64,000 nucleotides of DNA from positions 21,931 through 85,930 of the forward strand of contig WOZK01000004.1 in the NCBI GenBank assembly GCA_011620275.1, in the 5' to 3' direction. The notes beneath the pieces are model-generated. The model did not search any database. It was not told where the DNA came from and saw only the letters and a list, made by a program, of their open reading frames with translations. Of this stretch, positions 3,684 to 55,448 are shown piece by piece. The position numbers and the translations under genes are program-made. Within the stretch, counting starts at the first letter, position 1; each line of letters begins with the position of its first letter. The DNA is from Candidatus Omnitrophota bacterium (GTDB taxonomy: Bacteria > Omnitrophota > Gorgyraeia > Gygaellales > Profunditerraquicolaceae).

Positions 3684-3770
3684 GGAAATCGAAAGTAGAA
3701 AATTGGCCGCCCGCACTGAAGCGTTAGCGGACTCTGTGCGCTGTTTAAGAAACTTATTTAACAGCGCACT
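3684..3770. repeat. ~90-bp intergenic repeat element (family 4) with an internal 11-bp perfect hairpin (GCGCTGTTTAA...TTAAACAGCGC). Copy 1 is in the murD-mraY gap.
   Basis: About 85% identical to the reverse complement of 55215..55302. Core shared string AAATTGRCCGCCCGCACTRAAG..TTAGCGGACTCTGTG. A 16-mer ATCGAAAGTAGAAAAT also recurs near 40170 on the other strand. Confidence 0.6.
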
Positions 3771-4860
3771 ACCTCAACTTCAGCGTTACCAGCGCTAGCA
3801 GCGCCAGAAGTCCGGCAACTATCCAGAAACGCACGATCACCTTGCTCTCCTGCCAGCCGAGAAACTGAAAATGGTGGTGCAGCGGGGCTATCTTGAATAT
3901 GCGTTTGCCGGTCAATTTGAAAGAAGCCACCTGCAGTATCACCGAAAGCGCCTCCATAACAAACACGCCCCCGATGACGATCAACAACAGCTCTTTCTTT
4001 ATCAACAGCGCGACCGTGCCGAGCGCTCCGCCCAGAGCAAGAGATCCCACGTCTCCCATGAATACGGACGCAGGATAACAATTGTACCATAAAAAACCCA
4101 GCCCGGCGCCGAGTATGGCGGAACAAAAGACCGACAGCTCCCCGGCGCCTCTTATGTAGGGAATAAAAAGATAACTGCTGAAACGAATATTGCCCGCGAG
4201 ATAACTCAATACCCCCAGCGCTAAGGCGGCCATGACCACGTTCCCGGAGGCAAGGCCATCCAGCCCGTCGGTCAAATTAACCGCGTTGGAGGAACCGGCG
4301 ATGACCAGCGCGGAGAATAATATATAAAACACGCCCAGGTCTATTGTGATCTCCTTCATAAAGGGAATGTCCAGGGCGGTCCCGTACTGGCCGTCTAAAA
4401 AAATAACGAACCCCGCTATCAACCCTACCGCCAGCTGGCTCGCGAGTTTCTGCGCCGCGCTCAGGCCTTTGGAACGCTTCCTGGCCTGCTTTAGATAATC
4501 GTCCGCGAAACCGGTAAGCCCGAGCCAAAGAGTGACCGTCAAAGCGATAATAATGTTCTTGTTAAGCGCTTCCGACCAGAGCAGCGTGGAAATGAAGACA
4601 GCCGCCAGTATAAATATCCCGCCCATAGTGGGCGTATCCTGTTTGTTTATCTGCAGTTTGTAAAGTTCGAGGCTCTCTTTATTATTGCGGATGTTCTCCC
4701 CTATCTTCTGCCGTCTGAGCATATTTATTATCCGCGGGCCGAGAATCAAACTGAGCAGGAACGCGGTCAAAGCCGCCATCGCCGCCCTGAAAGTGATGTA
4801 ACGGAATACGTTGAAGAACGCTATTTCTCCATGCAGGGGATAAAAAAGGTAGTATAGCAT
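3769..4860 (-). CDS. mraY: Phospho-N-acetylmuramoyl-pentapeptide transferase MraY
   Basis: NLTDGLDGLASG motif and polytopic membrane protein. The likely true start is MLYYLFYPLH at 4860, with a GGAGG SD 5 nt upstream. The ORF-track extension MCPRNKTQ... is read-through of the REP-like repeat cluster. Confidence 0.9.
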   Translation of the reverse strand: MLYYLFYPLHGEIAFFNVFRYITFRAAMAALTAFLLSLILGPRIINMLRRQKIGENIRNNKESLELYKLQINKQDTPTMGGIFILAAVFISTLLWSEALNKNIIIALTVTLWLGLTGFADDYLKQARKRSKGLSAAQKLASQLAVGLIAGFVIFLDGQYGTALDIPFMKEITIDLGVFYILFSALVIAGSSNAVNLTDGLDGLASGNVVMAALALGVLSYLAGNIRFSSYLFIPYIRGAGELSVFCSAILGAGLGFLWYNCYPASVFMGDVGSLALGGALGTVALLIKKELLLIVIGGVFVMEALSVILQVASFKLTGKRIFKIAPLHHHFQFLGWQESKVIVRFWIVAGLLALLALVTLKLR

Positions 4861-15324: not shown

Positions 15325-15530
15325 ATTCCGGGGATACGATACTTAATCCCTCGGCAACGGCTACGGTAACCAGCAGAATTCAACCTGTCTTTCCTCCCAA
15401 ATGGATACCACTATTCTTTCCTCCCCAATGGATGCCACCAATCTTTCCTCCCCTCGATGGGGAGGATGAAGGAGGGGTGATAATCTTCCCTATCCTCCGA
15501 TGGGAAAAACGAAGGAGGGATAATATTGAA
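15325..15530. repeat. Composite repeat. One 23-bp REP-like copy (attccggggatacgatacttaat) is followed by a CGGCAACGG..GGTAACC segment and a degenerate tandem array built around the hairpin TCCTCCCC-TCGA-TGGGGAGGA (family 2).
   Basis: Near-identical ~75-bp core (CTTTCCTCCCCTCGATGGGGAGGATGAAGGAGGGGTGATAATCTTCCCT) recurs at 55085..55160, and in reverse orientation at 52080..52160. Confidence 0.7.
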
Positions 15531-22238: not shown

Positions 22239-22370
22239 ATTCCGGGGACACGATACTTAATTCCAGAAAACGATAAAAAACCGTGTTAGATTCCGCCATT
22301 TTCTTGCGTCTATTATAACAAAATAGGATTATAACATAAGTTTCCTGATTCCGGGGACACAATACTTAAT
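22239..22370. repeat. Two direct copies of the 23-bp REP-like element (22239..22261 and 22348..22370) upstream of the RAYT gene
   Basis: attccggggacacgatacttaat and attccggggacacaatacttaat. Confidence 0.85.
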
Positions 22371-22471
22371 CCTTTGGGTTCTTAGAAAGATTTTCTTGAG
22401 GCAGCGGCCAAACCTCATTCGCTCCATAGATGACGCGCTTCTTGTATAAACCAACAAAAAGGAGGCTCTCA

Positions 22472-23083
22472 ATGGCAAGGATAGCGAGATTAGTTATACC
22501 CGGAATTCCTCACCATATTGTTGTACAAAGAGGCAATAGACGTCAAGATGTCTTCTTTAACGACGATGACAGGAGGACTTATCTTAATTATCTAAAAACA
22601 TACGCTATGCCTTCAGGGATAGAATTCCTGTCATATTGTTTAATGGAAAATCACGTGCATATTATTGGTGTCCCGAGTAACAAAGATAGTTTCGCCAACG
22701 GTTTCGGAGAAGCACACCGTAGATATACAAGAATGATTAATTTCAGAAAAGGATGGAGAGGATATTTATGGGAGGGCAGATTCAAATCGTACCCCTTAGA
22801 GGGCACTTATTTATATGCCGCGCTTCGTTATATAGAAATGAATCCTGTAAGGGCAAAAATGGTGAAGAACGCCTGGGACTATCCTTGGTCAAGCGCAAAA
22901 GCACATGTCCTAAACCACACTGACATTTTACTAACCAATAATTGTATCGCTCCGGTAGTGGAGGACTGGAGATCATTTCTTTCTGAAGATGACAAACAAG
23001 ATACCGTCAACTTATTAGAAACGCATTTGATGAGCGGACGGCCGTTGGGAGATAATAAATTTATTGAGAAGTTAAAAAACTAA
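22472..23083 (+). CDS. REP-associated tyrosine transposase (RAYT; IS200/IS605-like Y1 HUH transposase)
   Basis: HUH motif NHVHIIGVP. RAYT signature YIEMNPVRAKMV with catalytic Tyr. N-terminal IPHHIVQRGNRRQDVFF. AGGAGG SD 8 nt upstream. The gene is markedly AT-rich. It is flanked by inverted copies of the 23-bp repeat. Confidence 0.85.
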   Translation: MARIARLVIPGIPHHIVVQRGNRRQDVFFNDDDRRTYLNYLKTYAMPSGIEFLSYCLMENHVHIIGVPSNKDSFANGFGEAHRRYTRMINFRKGWRGYLWEGRFKSYPLEGTYLYAALRYIEMNPVRAKMVKNAWDYPWSSAKAHVLNHTDILLTNNCIAPVVEDWRSFLSEDDKQDTVNLLETHLMSGRPLGDNKFIEKLKN

Positions 23084-23161: not shown

Positions 23162-23184
23162 ATTAAGTATCGTGTCCCCGGAAT
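23162..23184. repeat. 23-bp REP-like element, inverted copy downstream of the RAYT gene
   Basis: attaagtatcgtgtccccggaat. Confidence 0.85.
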
Positions 23185-23194
23185 TACGAGCAAG

Positions 23195-23268
23195 TGCGCC
23201 TGGCAGGACTCGAACCTGCAACGCCCAGCTCCGAAGGCTGGCGCTCTATCCAATTGAGCTACAGGCGC
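23195..23268 (-). tRNA. tRNA-Arg (anticodon TCG)
   Basis: Manual fold gives a 7-bp acceptor stem, a D-arm GTAGCTCAATTGGATAGAGC typical of Arg tRNAs, anticodon loop CTTCGGA and T-arm GGTTCGAGTCC. CCA is not encoded. Confidence 0.8.
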
Positions 23269-29420: not shown

Positions 29421-29703
29421 TTCCTCTCCTCCTTTTTTATCCTTTGATTGATTGTTTGTTTGGCAAGGATAGCGCCGAATCGTTTGTTTACCAGTACTTT
29501 ATTAAAATTTATTTTCTTTGTGCTTACTTTCCAAAAGCCATCTTATTGTAACATATTGGCATTAGAAACGCTGCGCGTATTTTAATGCGTTGATTATCTT
29601 TGATTTCATGTCGGTTTAACGCTACTTCTCGGCGATAAAACCATTAAATTGAGCCGTTCTTTAACAAAGTACTGATACACTAAAAAACTTATGTAACAGA
29701 ACA

Positions 29704-51757: not shown

Positions 51758-51875
51758 TATGGTTACTCCTTGAGGAATAATTAAGCTACCCAGACTTGTC
51801 CCTCGACTTTACTCAGGACAGGCACCCGGGGTACATTCGGGACACAGTCACGTTGGATTTTGTTGGTTACCGTAA

Positions 51876-52253
51876 CCAAGAACCGAAACGGGCTTAGTTA
51901 CCGTTGCCGATATTAAAACTCGTTTATCGTTTATGATGCCCTTGTCTTAGTCTTTATTTCCCTTCCCCTGGTGGGGGAGCAATAAGGACGATGATACTCT
52001 TCCTGCATCTTCCCCATCGAGGGGAAGAAAGATATGAATAATCTATTGGTTCGGGAGGGGATTGATTATCACCCCTCTAAAGCCTCCTTAGTTGTCACCC
52101 CTCCTCTATCCTCCTTAGTTACCACCCCTCCTTCATCCTCCCCATCGAGGGGAGGAAATACAGATTGAACCCTATTGGGTACCGTAGCCGAGAACCAAAA
52201 CGGACTTTGTTACCGTAACCGTTACCGAATTAAGTATCGTGTTCCCGGAATTC
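51876..52253. repeat. Composite repeat region upstream of the por operon. It has two ~45-bp GGTTACCGTAACC-type direct repeats, a G4/C4 hairpin tandem array (family 2, reverse orientation), and a terminal 23-bp REP-like copy at 52228..52253.
   Basis: The hairpins are TCCCC-TGGT-GGGGGA, CTTCCCC-ATCGA-GGGGAAG, GAGGGG-N11-CCCCTC and CCTCCCC-ATCGA-GGGGAGG. It has the same module order as 15325..15530, but inverted. Confidence 0.7.
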
Positions 52254-52665
52254 AAAATGTTTTGTAGTATTTTACTGCCGCCCCCTATGGCTGTCAAACA
52301 TTATTTTTAAAACATAGATGTAACTTACTGCGGCAAATAATGTTAGAGCGTACAGTTATCAAAAGAGCCTGGCAGGCGATTTCTACAGTAAAGGAAAAGG
52401 GGCTGAACCGCTCAACAGGCTCACTAAAAATGGTTATCGAAGGATCAAACCGCGGCGCGCCGGGTAGATTGCTTCAAGGAGGGCGACCGGCTCTCATCTG
52501 GCTTACCCGACTCTACTGACCGGGTCTCTCATAATGCGTTATATTTAAAACAGTTACAACGCCGGTTTCTTGAGTTTCTCGATGCCCAAGCCCGAGAAAC
52601 GGATTCTCAGCGGGCTGTTGATTCGTTACGGTTTGACTAATTTATAATGTGCGCTCGGCTCTGTT

Positions 52666-53974: not shown

Positions 53975-55030
53975 TTAACCGGATGATTTTCTTTTTTTCA
54001 CTATCACCTCGTCCTTCTTGCGTTTAGTGCCCCTCGAGTTCTTCTGCTGCCATTCCCACGCCGAGGAGATTATTTGTTCCAAGCCGAGCTTGGGCCTCCA
54101 GCCAAGGAGTGCTTCAGCTTTGGCGTAGGAGGCCACTAGTTCCGCGGCGTCCCCTGGCCTGCGCGCGGCTATTTTCACCGGGATGGGACTGCCGGTGACT
54201 CTCTCGACGAATGAGATCATTTCTTTGACGCTGTATCCCCTGCCGCTGCCCAGATTCAAGGCGGCGTTTTTCACGCCCTTGCCCAGCGCGTCCAGGGCCA
54301 GCAAATGCGCCCGGACCAAATCCATCACGTGTATGTAATCCCTGATGCAGGTACCGTCGCGCGTGGGATAGTCATCCCCGAAGATGTTCAACGCCGGGAT
54401 ATCGCCCGCCGCCGCCTTCAGCGCGTTGGGAAGCAGATGCGTCGCCTCTTCAAGCGGCTGTCCTATCCTGCCGCTCGGGTGCGCTCCGGAAACGTTGAAG
54501 TAACGCAAAGACAGATAATCCATCTTTCCGGAGGCGGCGCAATCACGCAACATCTGCTCCACCATCATCTTGGAAGTTCCGTAAGGGTTCTCCGGCCGCA
54601 AGGGGACTTCCTCGTTCACCGGCATCAGTTCCGGCTGGCCGTAAACCGCGGCCGAGGAAGAGAAAATGAATTTGCGCGCGCCGTGCTTCAGGCAATGTCG
54701 AAGCAAGTTGACAGATCCCCAGACGTTGTTTTCGTAGTACTTCAACGGCTCGCTCACCGACTCCGGGACCACGATCGAAGCCGCGAAATGCAAGACGGCA
54801 TCGAAGCGGAAGCGCGAAAAAAGCTTCTCCAGATCCTGTGCGGACCGCAGATCACCCCGCACGAATTCCACGCCCTCCGGGACGCGCTCCCGCCTGCCGG
54901 TAGATAGATCGTCGAACACCACCGCTTCTCGACCCTGCTCAAGCAAGAGGCTCAACATATGCGAACCGATATACCCGGCACCACCGGTGATCAAAATGAG
55001 ATTATTTTTCAACGTAAGCTCCGAAGACAC
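53975..55030 (-). CDS. galE: UDP-glucose 4-epimerase GalE (SDR family)
   Basis: LITGGAGYIGSH and the YxxxK catalytic region. 351 aa. Confidence 0.85.
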   Translation of the reverse strand: MSSELTLKNNLILITGGAGYIGSHMLSLLLEQGREAVVFDDLSTGRRERVPEGVEFVRGDLRSAQDLEKLFSRFRFDAVLHFAASIVVPESVSEPLKYYENNVWGSVNLLRHCLKHGARKFIFSSSAAVYGQPELMPVNEEVPLRPENPYGTSKMMVEQMLRDCAASGKMDYLSLRYFNVSGAHPSGRIGQPLEEATHLLPNALKAAAGDIPALNIFGDDYPTRDGTCIRDYIHVMDLVRAHLLALDALGKGVKNAALNLGSGRGYSVKEMISFVERVTGSPIPVKIAARRPGDAAELVASYAKAEALLGWRPKLGLEQIISSAWEWQQKNSRGTKRKKDEVIVKKRKSSG

Positions 55031-55302
55031 AATTATTCGGCAACGGTCACGGTTACCAACAGACCCCTACCTGTCTTTCCTCCCGAATGGGCACCTCCAA
55101 TCTTTCCTCCCCTCGATGGGGAGGATGAAGGAGGGGTGATAATCTTCCCTGTCATCCGATGGAGAGGATGAAGAAGGGGTGGTAATCAAGGATGATTTAG
55201 GAGGGGTGACAATCAGTGCGCTGTTCAGTAAGTTTTTTAGACAGCTCACAGAGTCCGCTAAAACTTTAGTGCGGGCGGTCAAATTTCGACTTTCGATTTT
55301 TA
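55031..55302. repeat. Adjacent copies of repeat family 2 (55031..55215) and of the ~90-bp family 4 element (55215..55302, inverted relative to 3684..3770)
   Basis: The family-2 part has a CGGCAACGGTCACGGTTACC leader, then CTTTCCTCCCCTCGATGGGGAGGATGAAGGAGGGGTGATAATC, then degenerate GGAGGGGTGRYAATC units. The family-4 part is ~85% identical to copy 1. Confidence 0.7.
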
Positions 55303-55448
55303 AATACCTATACACGACAGCCGAGATTTAATCAAACCGCAAGGATCTCCGCTTTTCAAGCCGATTCCAAGAGACAATCTTAAAGATTTGATCCGGTTTT
55401 TTCAATACTTATTTTGAATAAAAAGGATATTCGCTGCTTCATACTCCT

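Follow-up and report, generated by a model that had tools for sequence, protein, structure and literature searches.

A probable modular mosaic repeat family of the BOX/BIME type in Candidatus Omnitrophota

Introduction

The BOX elements of Streptococcus pneumoniae have the structure boxA-(boxB)n-boxC, range in length from 67 to 637 bp, contain predicted stem-loops, are open on both strands, and cluster with and insert into other repeats (PMC3049150). Bacterial interspersed mosaic elements (BIMEs) and the systems of repetitive extragenic palindromes (REPs), REPINs and REP-associated tyrosine transposases (RAYTs) have been described as well (PMC2817692, PMC3116915, PMC3733652). Here, we describe a composite intergenic repeat found at three loci of a 64,000-nucleotide stretch of contig WOZK01000004.1 (hereafter the window) from a Candidatus Omnitrophota bacterium. 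The composite is assembled from a REP-like sequence of 23 nt (the 23-mer), a leader, 27-nt pyrimidine units (P), a central hairpin (H), 27-nt purine units (R), and a tail. We consider that it probably represents a lineage-specific, non-autonomous, modular mosaic repeat family of the BOX/BIME type in this phylum.

The closest architecture is that of the pneumococcal BOX, and the composite belongs to neither BOX nor BIME/REPIN. Like the BOX elements of S. pneumoniae and S. suis, the composite is non-coding and intergenic, has fixed end modules around a variable tandem internal module, measures from less than 100 to several hundred bp, contains predicted stem-loops and frames that are open on both strands through composition, and has other repeats clustered with it or inserted into it. 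This likeness, which was drawn by setting the composite beside the published description, is architectural only, with no sequence relationship shown. The composite differs from BOX in that (i) two arrays of opposite polarity (P and R) surround a central hairpin, in place of a single boxB array; (ii) one of its ends is a REP-like 23-mer, which is common to a separate, RAYT-flanking repeat family; (iii) terminal inverted repeats and target-site duplications, which have been reported for BOX, were not found; and (iv) its host belongs to an uncultivated phylum of the Planctomycetes-Verrucomicrobia-Chlamydiae (PVC) group.

Like BIMEs and REPINs, the composite is an extragenic mosaic that combines a REP-type sequence with conserved motifs in fixed order and variable number. 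As in REP/REPIN-RAYT systems, a RAYT-like gene flanked by inverted REP-type copies is present in the same genome, and the distribution is lineage-specific. However, BIMEs are composed of REPs in alternating orientation with linkers, whereas the composite has a single 23-mer at one end and its bulk consists of non-REP modules. REPs are imperfect palindromes of 20-40 nt, often with a GTAG or CGTC tag; by contrast, the 23-mer is not a palindrome, H is untagged, and GTAG occurs on a tail hairpin, T2. A composition that resembles Shine-Dalgarno (SD) and anti-SD sequences further distinguishes the composite from both BOX and BIME.

The Correia (NEMIS) and ERIC/IRU elements are small intergenic repeats that occur in either orientation in transcription units, form RNA hairpins, and can alter mRNA processing or stability or supply promoter parts. 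They are miniature inverted-repeat transposable elements (MITEs) of fixed length, with clear terminal inverted repeats and TA duplications (Correia), and are not known to have internal tandem arrays or the SD/anti-SD composition of the composite. The C-rich small RNAs LhrC, RoxS/RsaE, and csRNAs pair with ribosome-binding sites, and the CsrB/Rsm RNAs are GGA-rich sponges. These RNAs share with the composite repeated CCUCC- or GGA-type motifs and several copies per genome, but they are discrete genes that have their own promoter and terminator and occupy few, fixed loci, features that were not found for the composite. Moreover, the GGA motifs of the composite are located mostly in stems and not in loops.

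Composite repeat loci and their module order

An earlier note on this DNA had claimed that a common core, with the same module order, occurs at 15325-15530 (locus 1), 51876-52253 (locus 2), and 55031-55215 (locus 3). All three loci are present and are multi-copy, modular, non-coding, and intergenic, and the claim was borne out by counts against shuffled sequences and by alignments between the loci. The 19-nt hairpin core CCTCCCCTCGATGGGGAGG had four matches with no more than 3 mismatches in the window, all of which were within the three loci (0.02 in shuffles); GGAGGGGTGATAATC occurred nine times in the window, seven times within the loci (1.9 expected from shuffles); and the leader GGTTACCGTAACCGTTRCCGA occurred three times, once in each locus (0 expected). 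The counts of the core and the leader far exceed those of the shuffles, and the repeat is therefore not due to chance. Locus 3 repeats locus 1 in the same orientation, with 84% identity over 120 nt and 82% over a further 76 nt of leader and P; locus 2 is the reverse complement of the others, with 98% identity over 40 nt and 82% over 61 nt. The flanks of the copies have nothing in common outside the modules.

Modules were mapped by blastn-short, and tandem periods by Tandem Repeats Finder (TRF). When the loci are read in a common orientation (loci 1 and 3 on the forward strand and locus 2 on the reverse strand), the three window loci and the 11 other loci described below have the order 23-mer, leader, (P)0-6, H, (R)0-3, and tail, in which the order is constant and the number is variable: (i) the 23-mer REP-like end is ATTCCGGGGACACGATACTTAAT; (ii) the leader is composed of CGGYWA hexamers and ends in ...AGAGTTCAACCTG; (iii) the 27-nt pyrimidine P unit is TCTTTCCTCCCSAATGGRNAYCYCCAA, which is present twice in locus 1, once in locus 3, and not at all in locus 2; (iv) the H unit is TCTTTCCTCCCC-TCGAT-GGGGAGGATGAAGGAGGGGTG, with the stem CCTCCCC-TCGAT-GGGGAGG and a longer, purine-rich 3' arm; (v) the 27-nt purine R unit is CTRAGGAGGATTAAGAGGGGTGAYAA, roughly the reverse complement of P, with two to three units in locus 2, one in locus 3, and H2-like 43-nt units alongside; and (vi) the tail that follows R is either H2-T1-(new leader) or T2-T3. 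The weaker hairpin modules H2 and T1 come after H/R in the loci. What had been described in the earlier note as a tandem array of hairpins is therefore two 27-nt tandem arrays that flank a single strong hairpin. The proposal of one fixed unit of 200-300 bp with the 23-mer as its terminus does not hold either: the loci form a mosaic with 0-6 P units, 0-3 R units, differing tails, and differences of 0-3 nt at the junction of the 23-mer with the leader.

The genes that flank the loci are housekeeping genes, which encode a xerC-like recombinase, a CCA-adding enzyme, subunits of a 2-oxoacid:ferredoxin oxidoreductase, a UDP-glucose dehydrogenase, and an epimerase. Because the homologues of the CCA enzyme carry the name Candidatus Omnitrophota, the host is assigned to that phylum.

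Copies on other contigs

A genome scan with the hairpin core, in a set that comprised one genome per species and lay outside the window's own genome, yielded one true relative, an Omnitrophota metagenome-assembled genome (MAG) with two tandem modules (L003), plus two chance matches. A metagenome scan with the 21-mer of the H 3' arm yielded 32 loci, 10 of which have the same ordered modules (L005, L007, L015, L018, L021, L022, L024, L026, L029, and L035). These 11 loci beyond the window share the module grammar, occur in both orientations, and are located in unrelated gene contexts; no flanking genes or synteny were common to the window and the 11 loci. The copies span at least seven other contigs, and one metagenome contig of 32 kb holds three copies. 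The family is thus not confined to the window, and copies in unrelated contexts on other Omnitrophota contigs agree with a multi-copy, non-coding family with mobile or fast-turnover behaviour, which bears out part of the earlier note's interpretation. Viral contigs, which were searched with the H 21-mer and the 23-mer, gave no matches.

Two copies on one contig (L015 and L024) contain an identical ordered series of six variant P units and have differing tails, and L024 has a MITE-like repeat of 185 bp at a place where L015 is uninterrupted, a pattern that shows block copying followed by recombination and secondary insertion. A Logan short-read contig identical to the window (L004) terminates at 15469 within H, and many metagenome copies are located at contig ends. 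Contig breaks within the element are the expected behaviour of a dispersed repeat.

A MITE-like element of 185 bp with the terminal inverted repeats CAGTACTTTRTTAAAA ... TTTAACAARGTACTG was observed at 29492-29674 of the window, at 7905-8086 of L007, and at 797-978 of L024, the three copies being 87-88% identical. In L007 and L024, this element lies within the composite P-unit array, and L015 is the uninterrupted paralogue of L024. The H 21-mer GGGGAGGATGAAGGAGGGGTG is also the 3' arm of lone intergenic hairpins with a pyrimidine 5' arm, which are found on contigs without other modules of the family (L006/L036, L008, L010 (= L011, L019, L020, L025, L027, L031), L012, L013, L030, and L032). The lone hairpins are single-copy per contig, some are followed by T runs, and one is located 20 nt upstream of the start of a putative riboflavin synthase (hand translation); in L008, L010, and L012, the 5' arm has the same departure from perfect complementarity as H, TCTTTCC. 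Two other motifs recur in spacers. The module AACCGCAGAAATCTCCGGCTTTCAAGCCGGTTACGCG (hairpin CCGGC-TTTCAA-GCCGG), usually the last before the next gene start, was found at 55334-55367 of the window and in L015, L018 (8640-8700), L022 (4150-4180), and L003 (170-215). The motif GCYTGYCCTGAG....TCGARGGGRYCAA, recognized by eye, recurs in intergenic spacers of several Omnitrophota contigs (window ~51790-51830 on the reverse strand, L018 300-560, L003 3400-3470, and L038 7310-7440).

The xerC-cca spacer in relatives

The xerC-cca synteny around locus 1 is retained in six relatives, whose CCA enzymes have amino acid identities to that of the window of 95% (L042), 83% (L037), 79% (L043), 72% (L038), 72% (L040), and 61% (L041). 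The 23-mer, leader, P, H, and R are absent from the orthologous xerC-cca spacer in all six. A T2 hairpin abuts the xerC stop codon in L038, L040, and L041, T3-type modules are present in the spacers of L037, L040, and L042, and a leader-like hexamer array is present in that of L041; the 105-nt spacer of L043 contains none of these modules. A cca-proximal stretch is common to L037, L038, L042, and partly L040 and was lost from the window. These comparisons indicate that the locus 1 composite replaced the ancestral spacer after the split from the relative with the 95%-identical neighbouring protein. Absence from the spacers of six relatives argues for a recent lineage-specific gain and not for local duplication. 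The earlier note had held that copies restricted to the three loci, with conserved flanks in relatives, would point away from mobility; instead, the spacer differs among relatives and copies exist elsewhere.

In the relatives, the stretch just upstream of cca is CTAAGAAAACTTTTGTAACAATGTATTAGACCGGGGAGG (L037 380-424, L038 7480-7530, L042 80-121, and L040 9970-10000), which is probably the native cca promoter and ribosome-binding region. Its loss from the window implies that cca is expressed there by read-through from xerC or from sequences within the repeat. A GTAG sequence precedes the T2 hairpin, TGCGCTGTT-loop-AACAGCGCA, and its TAG is the stop codon of the upstream gene (window 3732-3771 on the reverse strand, L038 7262-7300, L040 9652-9690, and L041 9797-9835); the hairpin follows the gene that ends at 3769 of the window and follows xerC in three relatives. 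T2 looks like a classical REP with a GTAG tag (PMC3733652) and is distinct from the 23-mer.

The RAYT-like gene and the 23-mer

The candidate mobilizing enzyme is a Y1/HUH transposase of 217 amino acids (RAYT-like), which is encoded on the forward strand at 22430-23083, has PF01797 (Y1_Tnp) on record, and contains the HVH motif. Its gene is bracketed by inverted 23-mers (22239-22261 and 22348-22370 on the forward strand and 23162-23184 on the reverse strand). A gene flanked by inverted repeat copies, the arrangement that characterizes RAYTs, was thus found for the 23-mer and not for the composite. The 23-mer lacks self-complementarity, and hairpins arise from inverted pairs only; H is palindromic but has neither the GTAG nor the CGTC tag, and the full composite does not qualify as a REP. 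Two stretches of 14-19 kb from relatives at 72% (L038 and L040), which are syntenic with ~4-26 kb of the window, contain no 23-mer, no P, H, or R, and no RAYT/Y1 transposase gene. In the sequences sampled here, transposase, 23-mer, and composite either occur together or are all missing. We infer a link between the transposase and the composite, of which the RAYT-like protein is the most likely candidate for the mobilizing enzyme.

A tRNA gene (23195-23268) adjoins the RAYT-like region. The RAYT-like gene was missed by a codon-usage gene caller, which suggests an atypical composition, and relatives have a gene with a 4HBT domain in this neighbourhood instead.

Anatomy of the three loci

Locus 1 is read on the forward strand. 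The 23-mer module ATTCCGGGGATACGATACTTAAT (15325-15347, 95.7% to the consensus) forms the 5' end of the composite and is followed, after the 3-nt linker CCC, by the leader (15351-15387), which is composed of hexamer-periodic CGGYWA and then CAGCAGAATTCAACCTG. Two tandem 27-nt P units TCTTTCCTCCCMAATGGATRCCACYAW (15388-15441; TRF period 27, 2.4 copies, 89% matches) lead to the central hairpin H (15442-15485), which was identified by a 36/36 match in blastn-short and by its fold. The stem of H is formed by CCTCCCC (15447-15453) and GGGGAGG (15459-15465) with the loop TCGAT, and its extended 3' arm GATGAAGGAGGGGTG pairs to CACC..TCTT. A degenerate H2-like second hairpin (15486-15528), recognized by comparison with L015 and with the units of locus 3, is the end of the element.

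Locus 2 is read on the reverse strand. The 23-mer (52229-52251) is followed by a leader of the long form (52161-52228), in which two CGGYWA blocks surround AAAGTCCGTTTTGGTTC, and by H (52123-52160; 36/36), with zero P units in this copy. Beyond H are the tandem 27-nt R units CTAAGGAGGMTWKAGRGGGGTGAYAA (52064-52122; period 27, 2.2 copies, 87% matches), a spacer module and then a second hairpin (51989-52063), the latter with a compensated stem CTTCCCC/GGGGAAG at 52027-52009, and the tail T1 (51911-51988), which consists of the hairpin CTCCCC..GGGGAAG and then ...CGATAAACGAGTTTTAATA and matches the metagenome consensus at 93.4% over 76 nt. The last part (51833-51910) comprises a second leader (LEAD 51861-51877) and a degenerate inverted 23-mer TGTGTCCCGAAT, the latter recognized by eye.

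Locus 3, on the forward strand, begins with a degenerate remnant of the 23-mer, CTCCGAAGACACAA----TTAT (55019-55036), which was identified by alignment and overlaps the epimerase gene of the reverse strand at its 5' end and ribosome-binding region. The leader (55037-55073), a single P unit (55074-55100), and H (55101-55142; 36/36; stem-loop 55106-55124) are followed by an H2-like unit and one R unit (55143-55214), with periods of 43 nt and 27 nt. The adjoining tail (55215-55370; T2 94.7%) is composed of a T2 hairpin (GTGCGCTGT..ACAGCTCAC), T3-like and T1b-like stretches, and a hairpin module CCGC-TTTTCAA-GCCG. The same tail modules are present in L003, L015, L018, and L029, and T2/T3 also stand alone at 3686-3770 of the window.

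The earlier note had located loci 2 and 3 correctly, but its spans were too short: locus 2 reaches left to ~51833 with the second leader and the degenerate inverted 23-mer, and locus 3 runs on to ~55370 through T2, T3, and T1b modules. Likewise, the 23-mer adjoins loci 1 (15325-15347, forward) and 2 (52251-52229, reverse) as it had stated, but locus 3 also has one, at ~55019-55036, which is degenerate and has a 4-nt deletion.

The central hairpin

The predicted fold of H is CACC..UCUUUCCUCCCC-loop-GGGGAGGA(UGA)AGGA(GG)GGUG. In an alignment of 18 sequences, the inner helix is almost invariant and is paired in 97.9% of cells. Covariation is weak and consists of double changes at two pairs, which was matched by 24 of 500 shuffles, in a stem that is near-invariant and has a 3' arm fixed by the search pattern. 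The stem variants CCUCCCC/GGGGAGG, CUUCCCC/GGGGAAG, and UUCUUCCC/GGGGAGAA are compensatory, and compensated stem variants were seen in copies outside the selection by the search pattern. These variants suggest that the hairpin is kept through compensatory changes.

The folding z-scores of the two strands were -1.06 and +0.08 for locus 1, which is barely better than shuffles, and -2.7 and -3.1 for locus 3, which is moderate. The z-scores are weak because shuffles of pyrimidine and purine tracts fold nearly as well. No strand preference was found in the folding of both strands of the window loci. In the mini-hairpins of the P units, the asymmetry between G.U and A.C pairs favours the forward strand for one P subtype and the reverse strand for the other.

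Transcription and Shine-Dalgarno-like composition

According to our own codon-usage gene caller, 10 copies are co-directional with their neighbours and 7 are antisense, which reveals no orientation rule. All copies with both flanks known (10 of 10) are located between genes on the same strand, which makes read-through transcription likely. A scan of the three regions revealed no conserved promoter or intrinsic terminator at the borders of the element. Rfam at gathering thresholds identified two tRNAs only in the whole window, and its matches in the three regions at E<=10 were at chance level. A sigma-70-like site, TTGACA-17-TAAAAT (11/12 matches; 52269-52297, reverse strand), was observed just upstream of locus 2, which would place locus 2 within a 5' untranslated region (UTR) of ~500 nt, composed of repeat modules, of the 2-oxoacid:ferredoxin oxidoreductase genes.

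Of all its features, the composition of the element stands out as the most unusual. Each P unit contains CCUCC twice and resembles the anti-SD sequence, and R contains AAGGAGG and GGGGUGAU and resembles the SD sequence. The R motifs are close to the perfect complement of the 3' tail of bacterial 16S rRNA. Because the reverse complement of P is approximately R, either strand reads as pyrimidine array, hairpin, and purine array.

Several candidate identities were rejected. A likeness to the 16S rRNA 3' end, considered for the leader (GGTTACCGTAG) and for the R units, was dropped because order and orientation do not fit. An intrinsic terminator was discarded since the three regions contain no site with a GC-rich hairpin and a T run, and a CRISPR array was ruled out since the 27-nt units are contiguous without spacers. 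Nor does the element have the marks of a small regulatory RNA gene or protein sponge RNA: it matches no Rfam family, no promoter or terminator was found at its borders, and the locus is not conserved in relatives.

Discussion

The composite is multi-copy, keeps a constant module order with variable module number, occurs in both orientations in unrelated spacers, has been copied in blocks, and was recently gained at an orthologous site. It is a new repeat family with a variant architecture within a known class of elements, and not a new mechanism or system. In the mechanism that we propose for a non-autonomous mosaic repeat, new copies would arise by transposition or recombination beside 23-mers through the RAYT-like enzyme, arrays would gain and lose units through slippage during replication or through unequal recombination, and differing tails would be acquired when copies recombine with one another. 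It is probable that the element is selfish or neutral. Read-through transcription is probable since the element sits between co-directional genes, and mRNA structure may then be changed incidentally by the hairpins and the SD-/anti-SD-like tracts.

Several observations weigh against a mosaic repeat of this type. Among the copies, we found neither a transposition event nor a target-site duplication, and no terminal inverted repeat that was consistent, and the right-hand borders vary; an inverted 23-mer at the far end is possible in locus 2 only, and there it is degenerate. For the genome as a whole, the copy number is an extrapolation from the 3 copies in 64 kb. NF047646 (REP-associated tyrosine transposase) is the best and only NCBIfam match of the RAYT-like protein, and its 53.2 bits are below the cut-off of 80. 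The junction between the 23-mer and the leader varies by 0-3 nt among copies (none, A, CCC, TAC, or TAT), which argues that the composite is not copied rigidly with the 23-mer and makes the involvement of the RAYT conjectural. Together with leaders that occur after T1 without a 23-mer, this variation indicates that the 23-mer and the remaining modules are separable. Finally, the H core of 36 nt shows 94-100% identity among contigs from different samples and in one or more further species-level MAGs, a conservation stronger than a neutral relic needs, and a host function could account for it.

Such a function could be that of an RNA. An RNA that mimics anti-SD and SD sequences, whether as a small RNA with multiple copies or as a module that acts in cis within mRNAs, is rather unlikely, although it draws on several features of the element. 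In such an RNA, P (UCUUUCCUCCCC, CCUCC) would mimic the anti-SD and R (AAGGAGG(GG)UGAU) a near-perfect SD, and the RNA could titrate 30S subunits, ribosome-binding sites of mRNAs, or an RNA-binding protein, or could serve as a ribosome standby site or RNase III target. The clade's gene starts use ribosome-binding sites of the GGGAGG type, and the approximate complementarity of P and R makes the element pseudo-palindromic and, at that level, orientation-independent. The very strong conservation of the H core, the tolerance of C-to-U stem changes as G.U pairs, the likely read-through of the 10 copies between same-strand genes, and the sigma-70-like promoter that would make the element part of the oxidoreductase operon's 5' UTR fit the same picture. 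However, the absence of an Rfam match and of conserved border promoters or terminators, and folding that is near shuffles in locus 1, moderate in locus 3, and without a preferred strand, speak against such an RNA. Presence or absence at an orthologous site among 95%-identical relatives argues against a gene-specific cis role, approximately one copy per 10-20 kb is far above the number in known small-RNA families, and the numbers of P and R are unbalanced among copies (6:2, 3:0, and 0:2), so that a defined long P:R helix is not maintained.

A role in binding proteins at the DNA level is unlikely. The 27-nt units and CGGYWA hexamers would here be the sites of a nucleoid-associated protein, gyrase, or a regulator, by analogy with the E. 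coli BIMEs, which bind IHF, gyrase, and Pol I. The regular periodicities of 27 nt and 6 nt, the extragenic position, and unit cores that are strongly conserved while unit numbers vary are as expected of such an array, but no protein associated with the loci is a candidate for binding, no match to the IHF consensus was seen by eye in the units, a spacing of 27 nt is not a whole number of helical turns, and the element is dispensable at orthologous sites. Binding of a protein is compatible with a selfish repeat, in which it could be a secondary, acquired role.

It is improbable that the SD-like composition amounts to a system of control, in which transcripts of the family, with anti-SD (P) and near-perfect SD (R) mimics around a hairpin, would provide genome-wide, orientation-independent control of translation or mRNA stability in Omnitrophota. 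Such control could operate through standby or decoy sites for 30S subunits or through entry sites for RNase III, and it would explain the 94-100% identity of the H core across samples and species.

Local segmental duplication in this region, without mobility, is very improbable: it would fit the presence of all three copies in a span of 40 kb, with only 3 kb between two of them, but it is contradicted by copies in unrelated gene contexts on seven or more other contigs, by the absence of the element from the orthologous spacer of six relatives, and by flanks of the window copies that are alike in modules only. Small repetitive peptides, with the 27-nt period read as 9 codons, are hardly credible and were rejected, for although the periods are divisible by three, every frame across the pyrimidine and purine arrays is open, and short GTG-initiated mini-open reading frames can be drawn in the R units by hand, the openness reflects a base composition with few stop-codon letters and is alike in all three frames (hand translation), no properly spaced start codon is conserved, and the frame is not kept, being broken by the 43-nt H unit and by indels in the T1 hairpin that preserve the hairpin, and shifted between long and short leaders.

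A mosaic repeat family of the BOX/BIME type therefore remains the reading that we prefer. Our literature search found no account of such repeats in Omnitrophota, and this is apparently the first documented mosaic intergenic repeat family in an uncultivated phylum known from metagenomes alone. The repeats break short-read assemblies and so explain fragmented MAGs, and they serve as markers of very recent change in the genome, given relatives with 95% identity in a neighbouring protein; they are thus relevant to work on mobile DNA, metagenome assembly, and Omnitrophota. If the SD/anti-SD composition is functional, the family would be an unusual dispersed element of translational control. The combination of a REP-like end, a RAYT-like gene, and a BOX-like body offers a natural case for how mosaic repeats assemble and mobilize.

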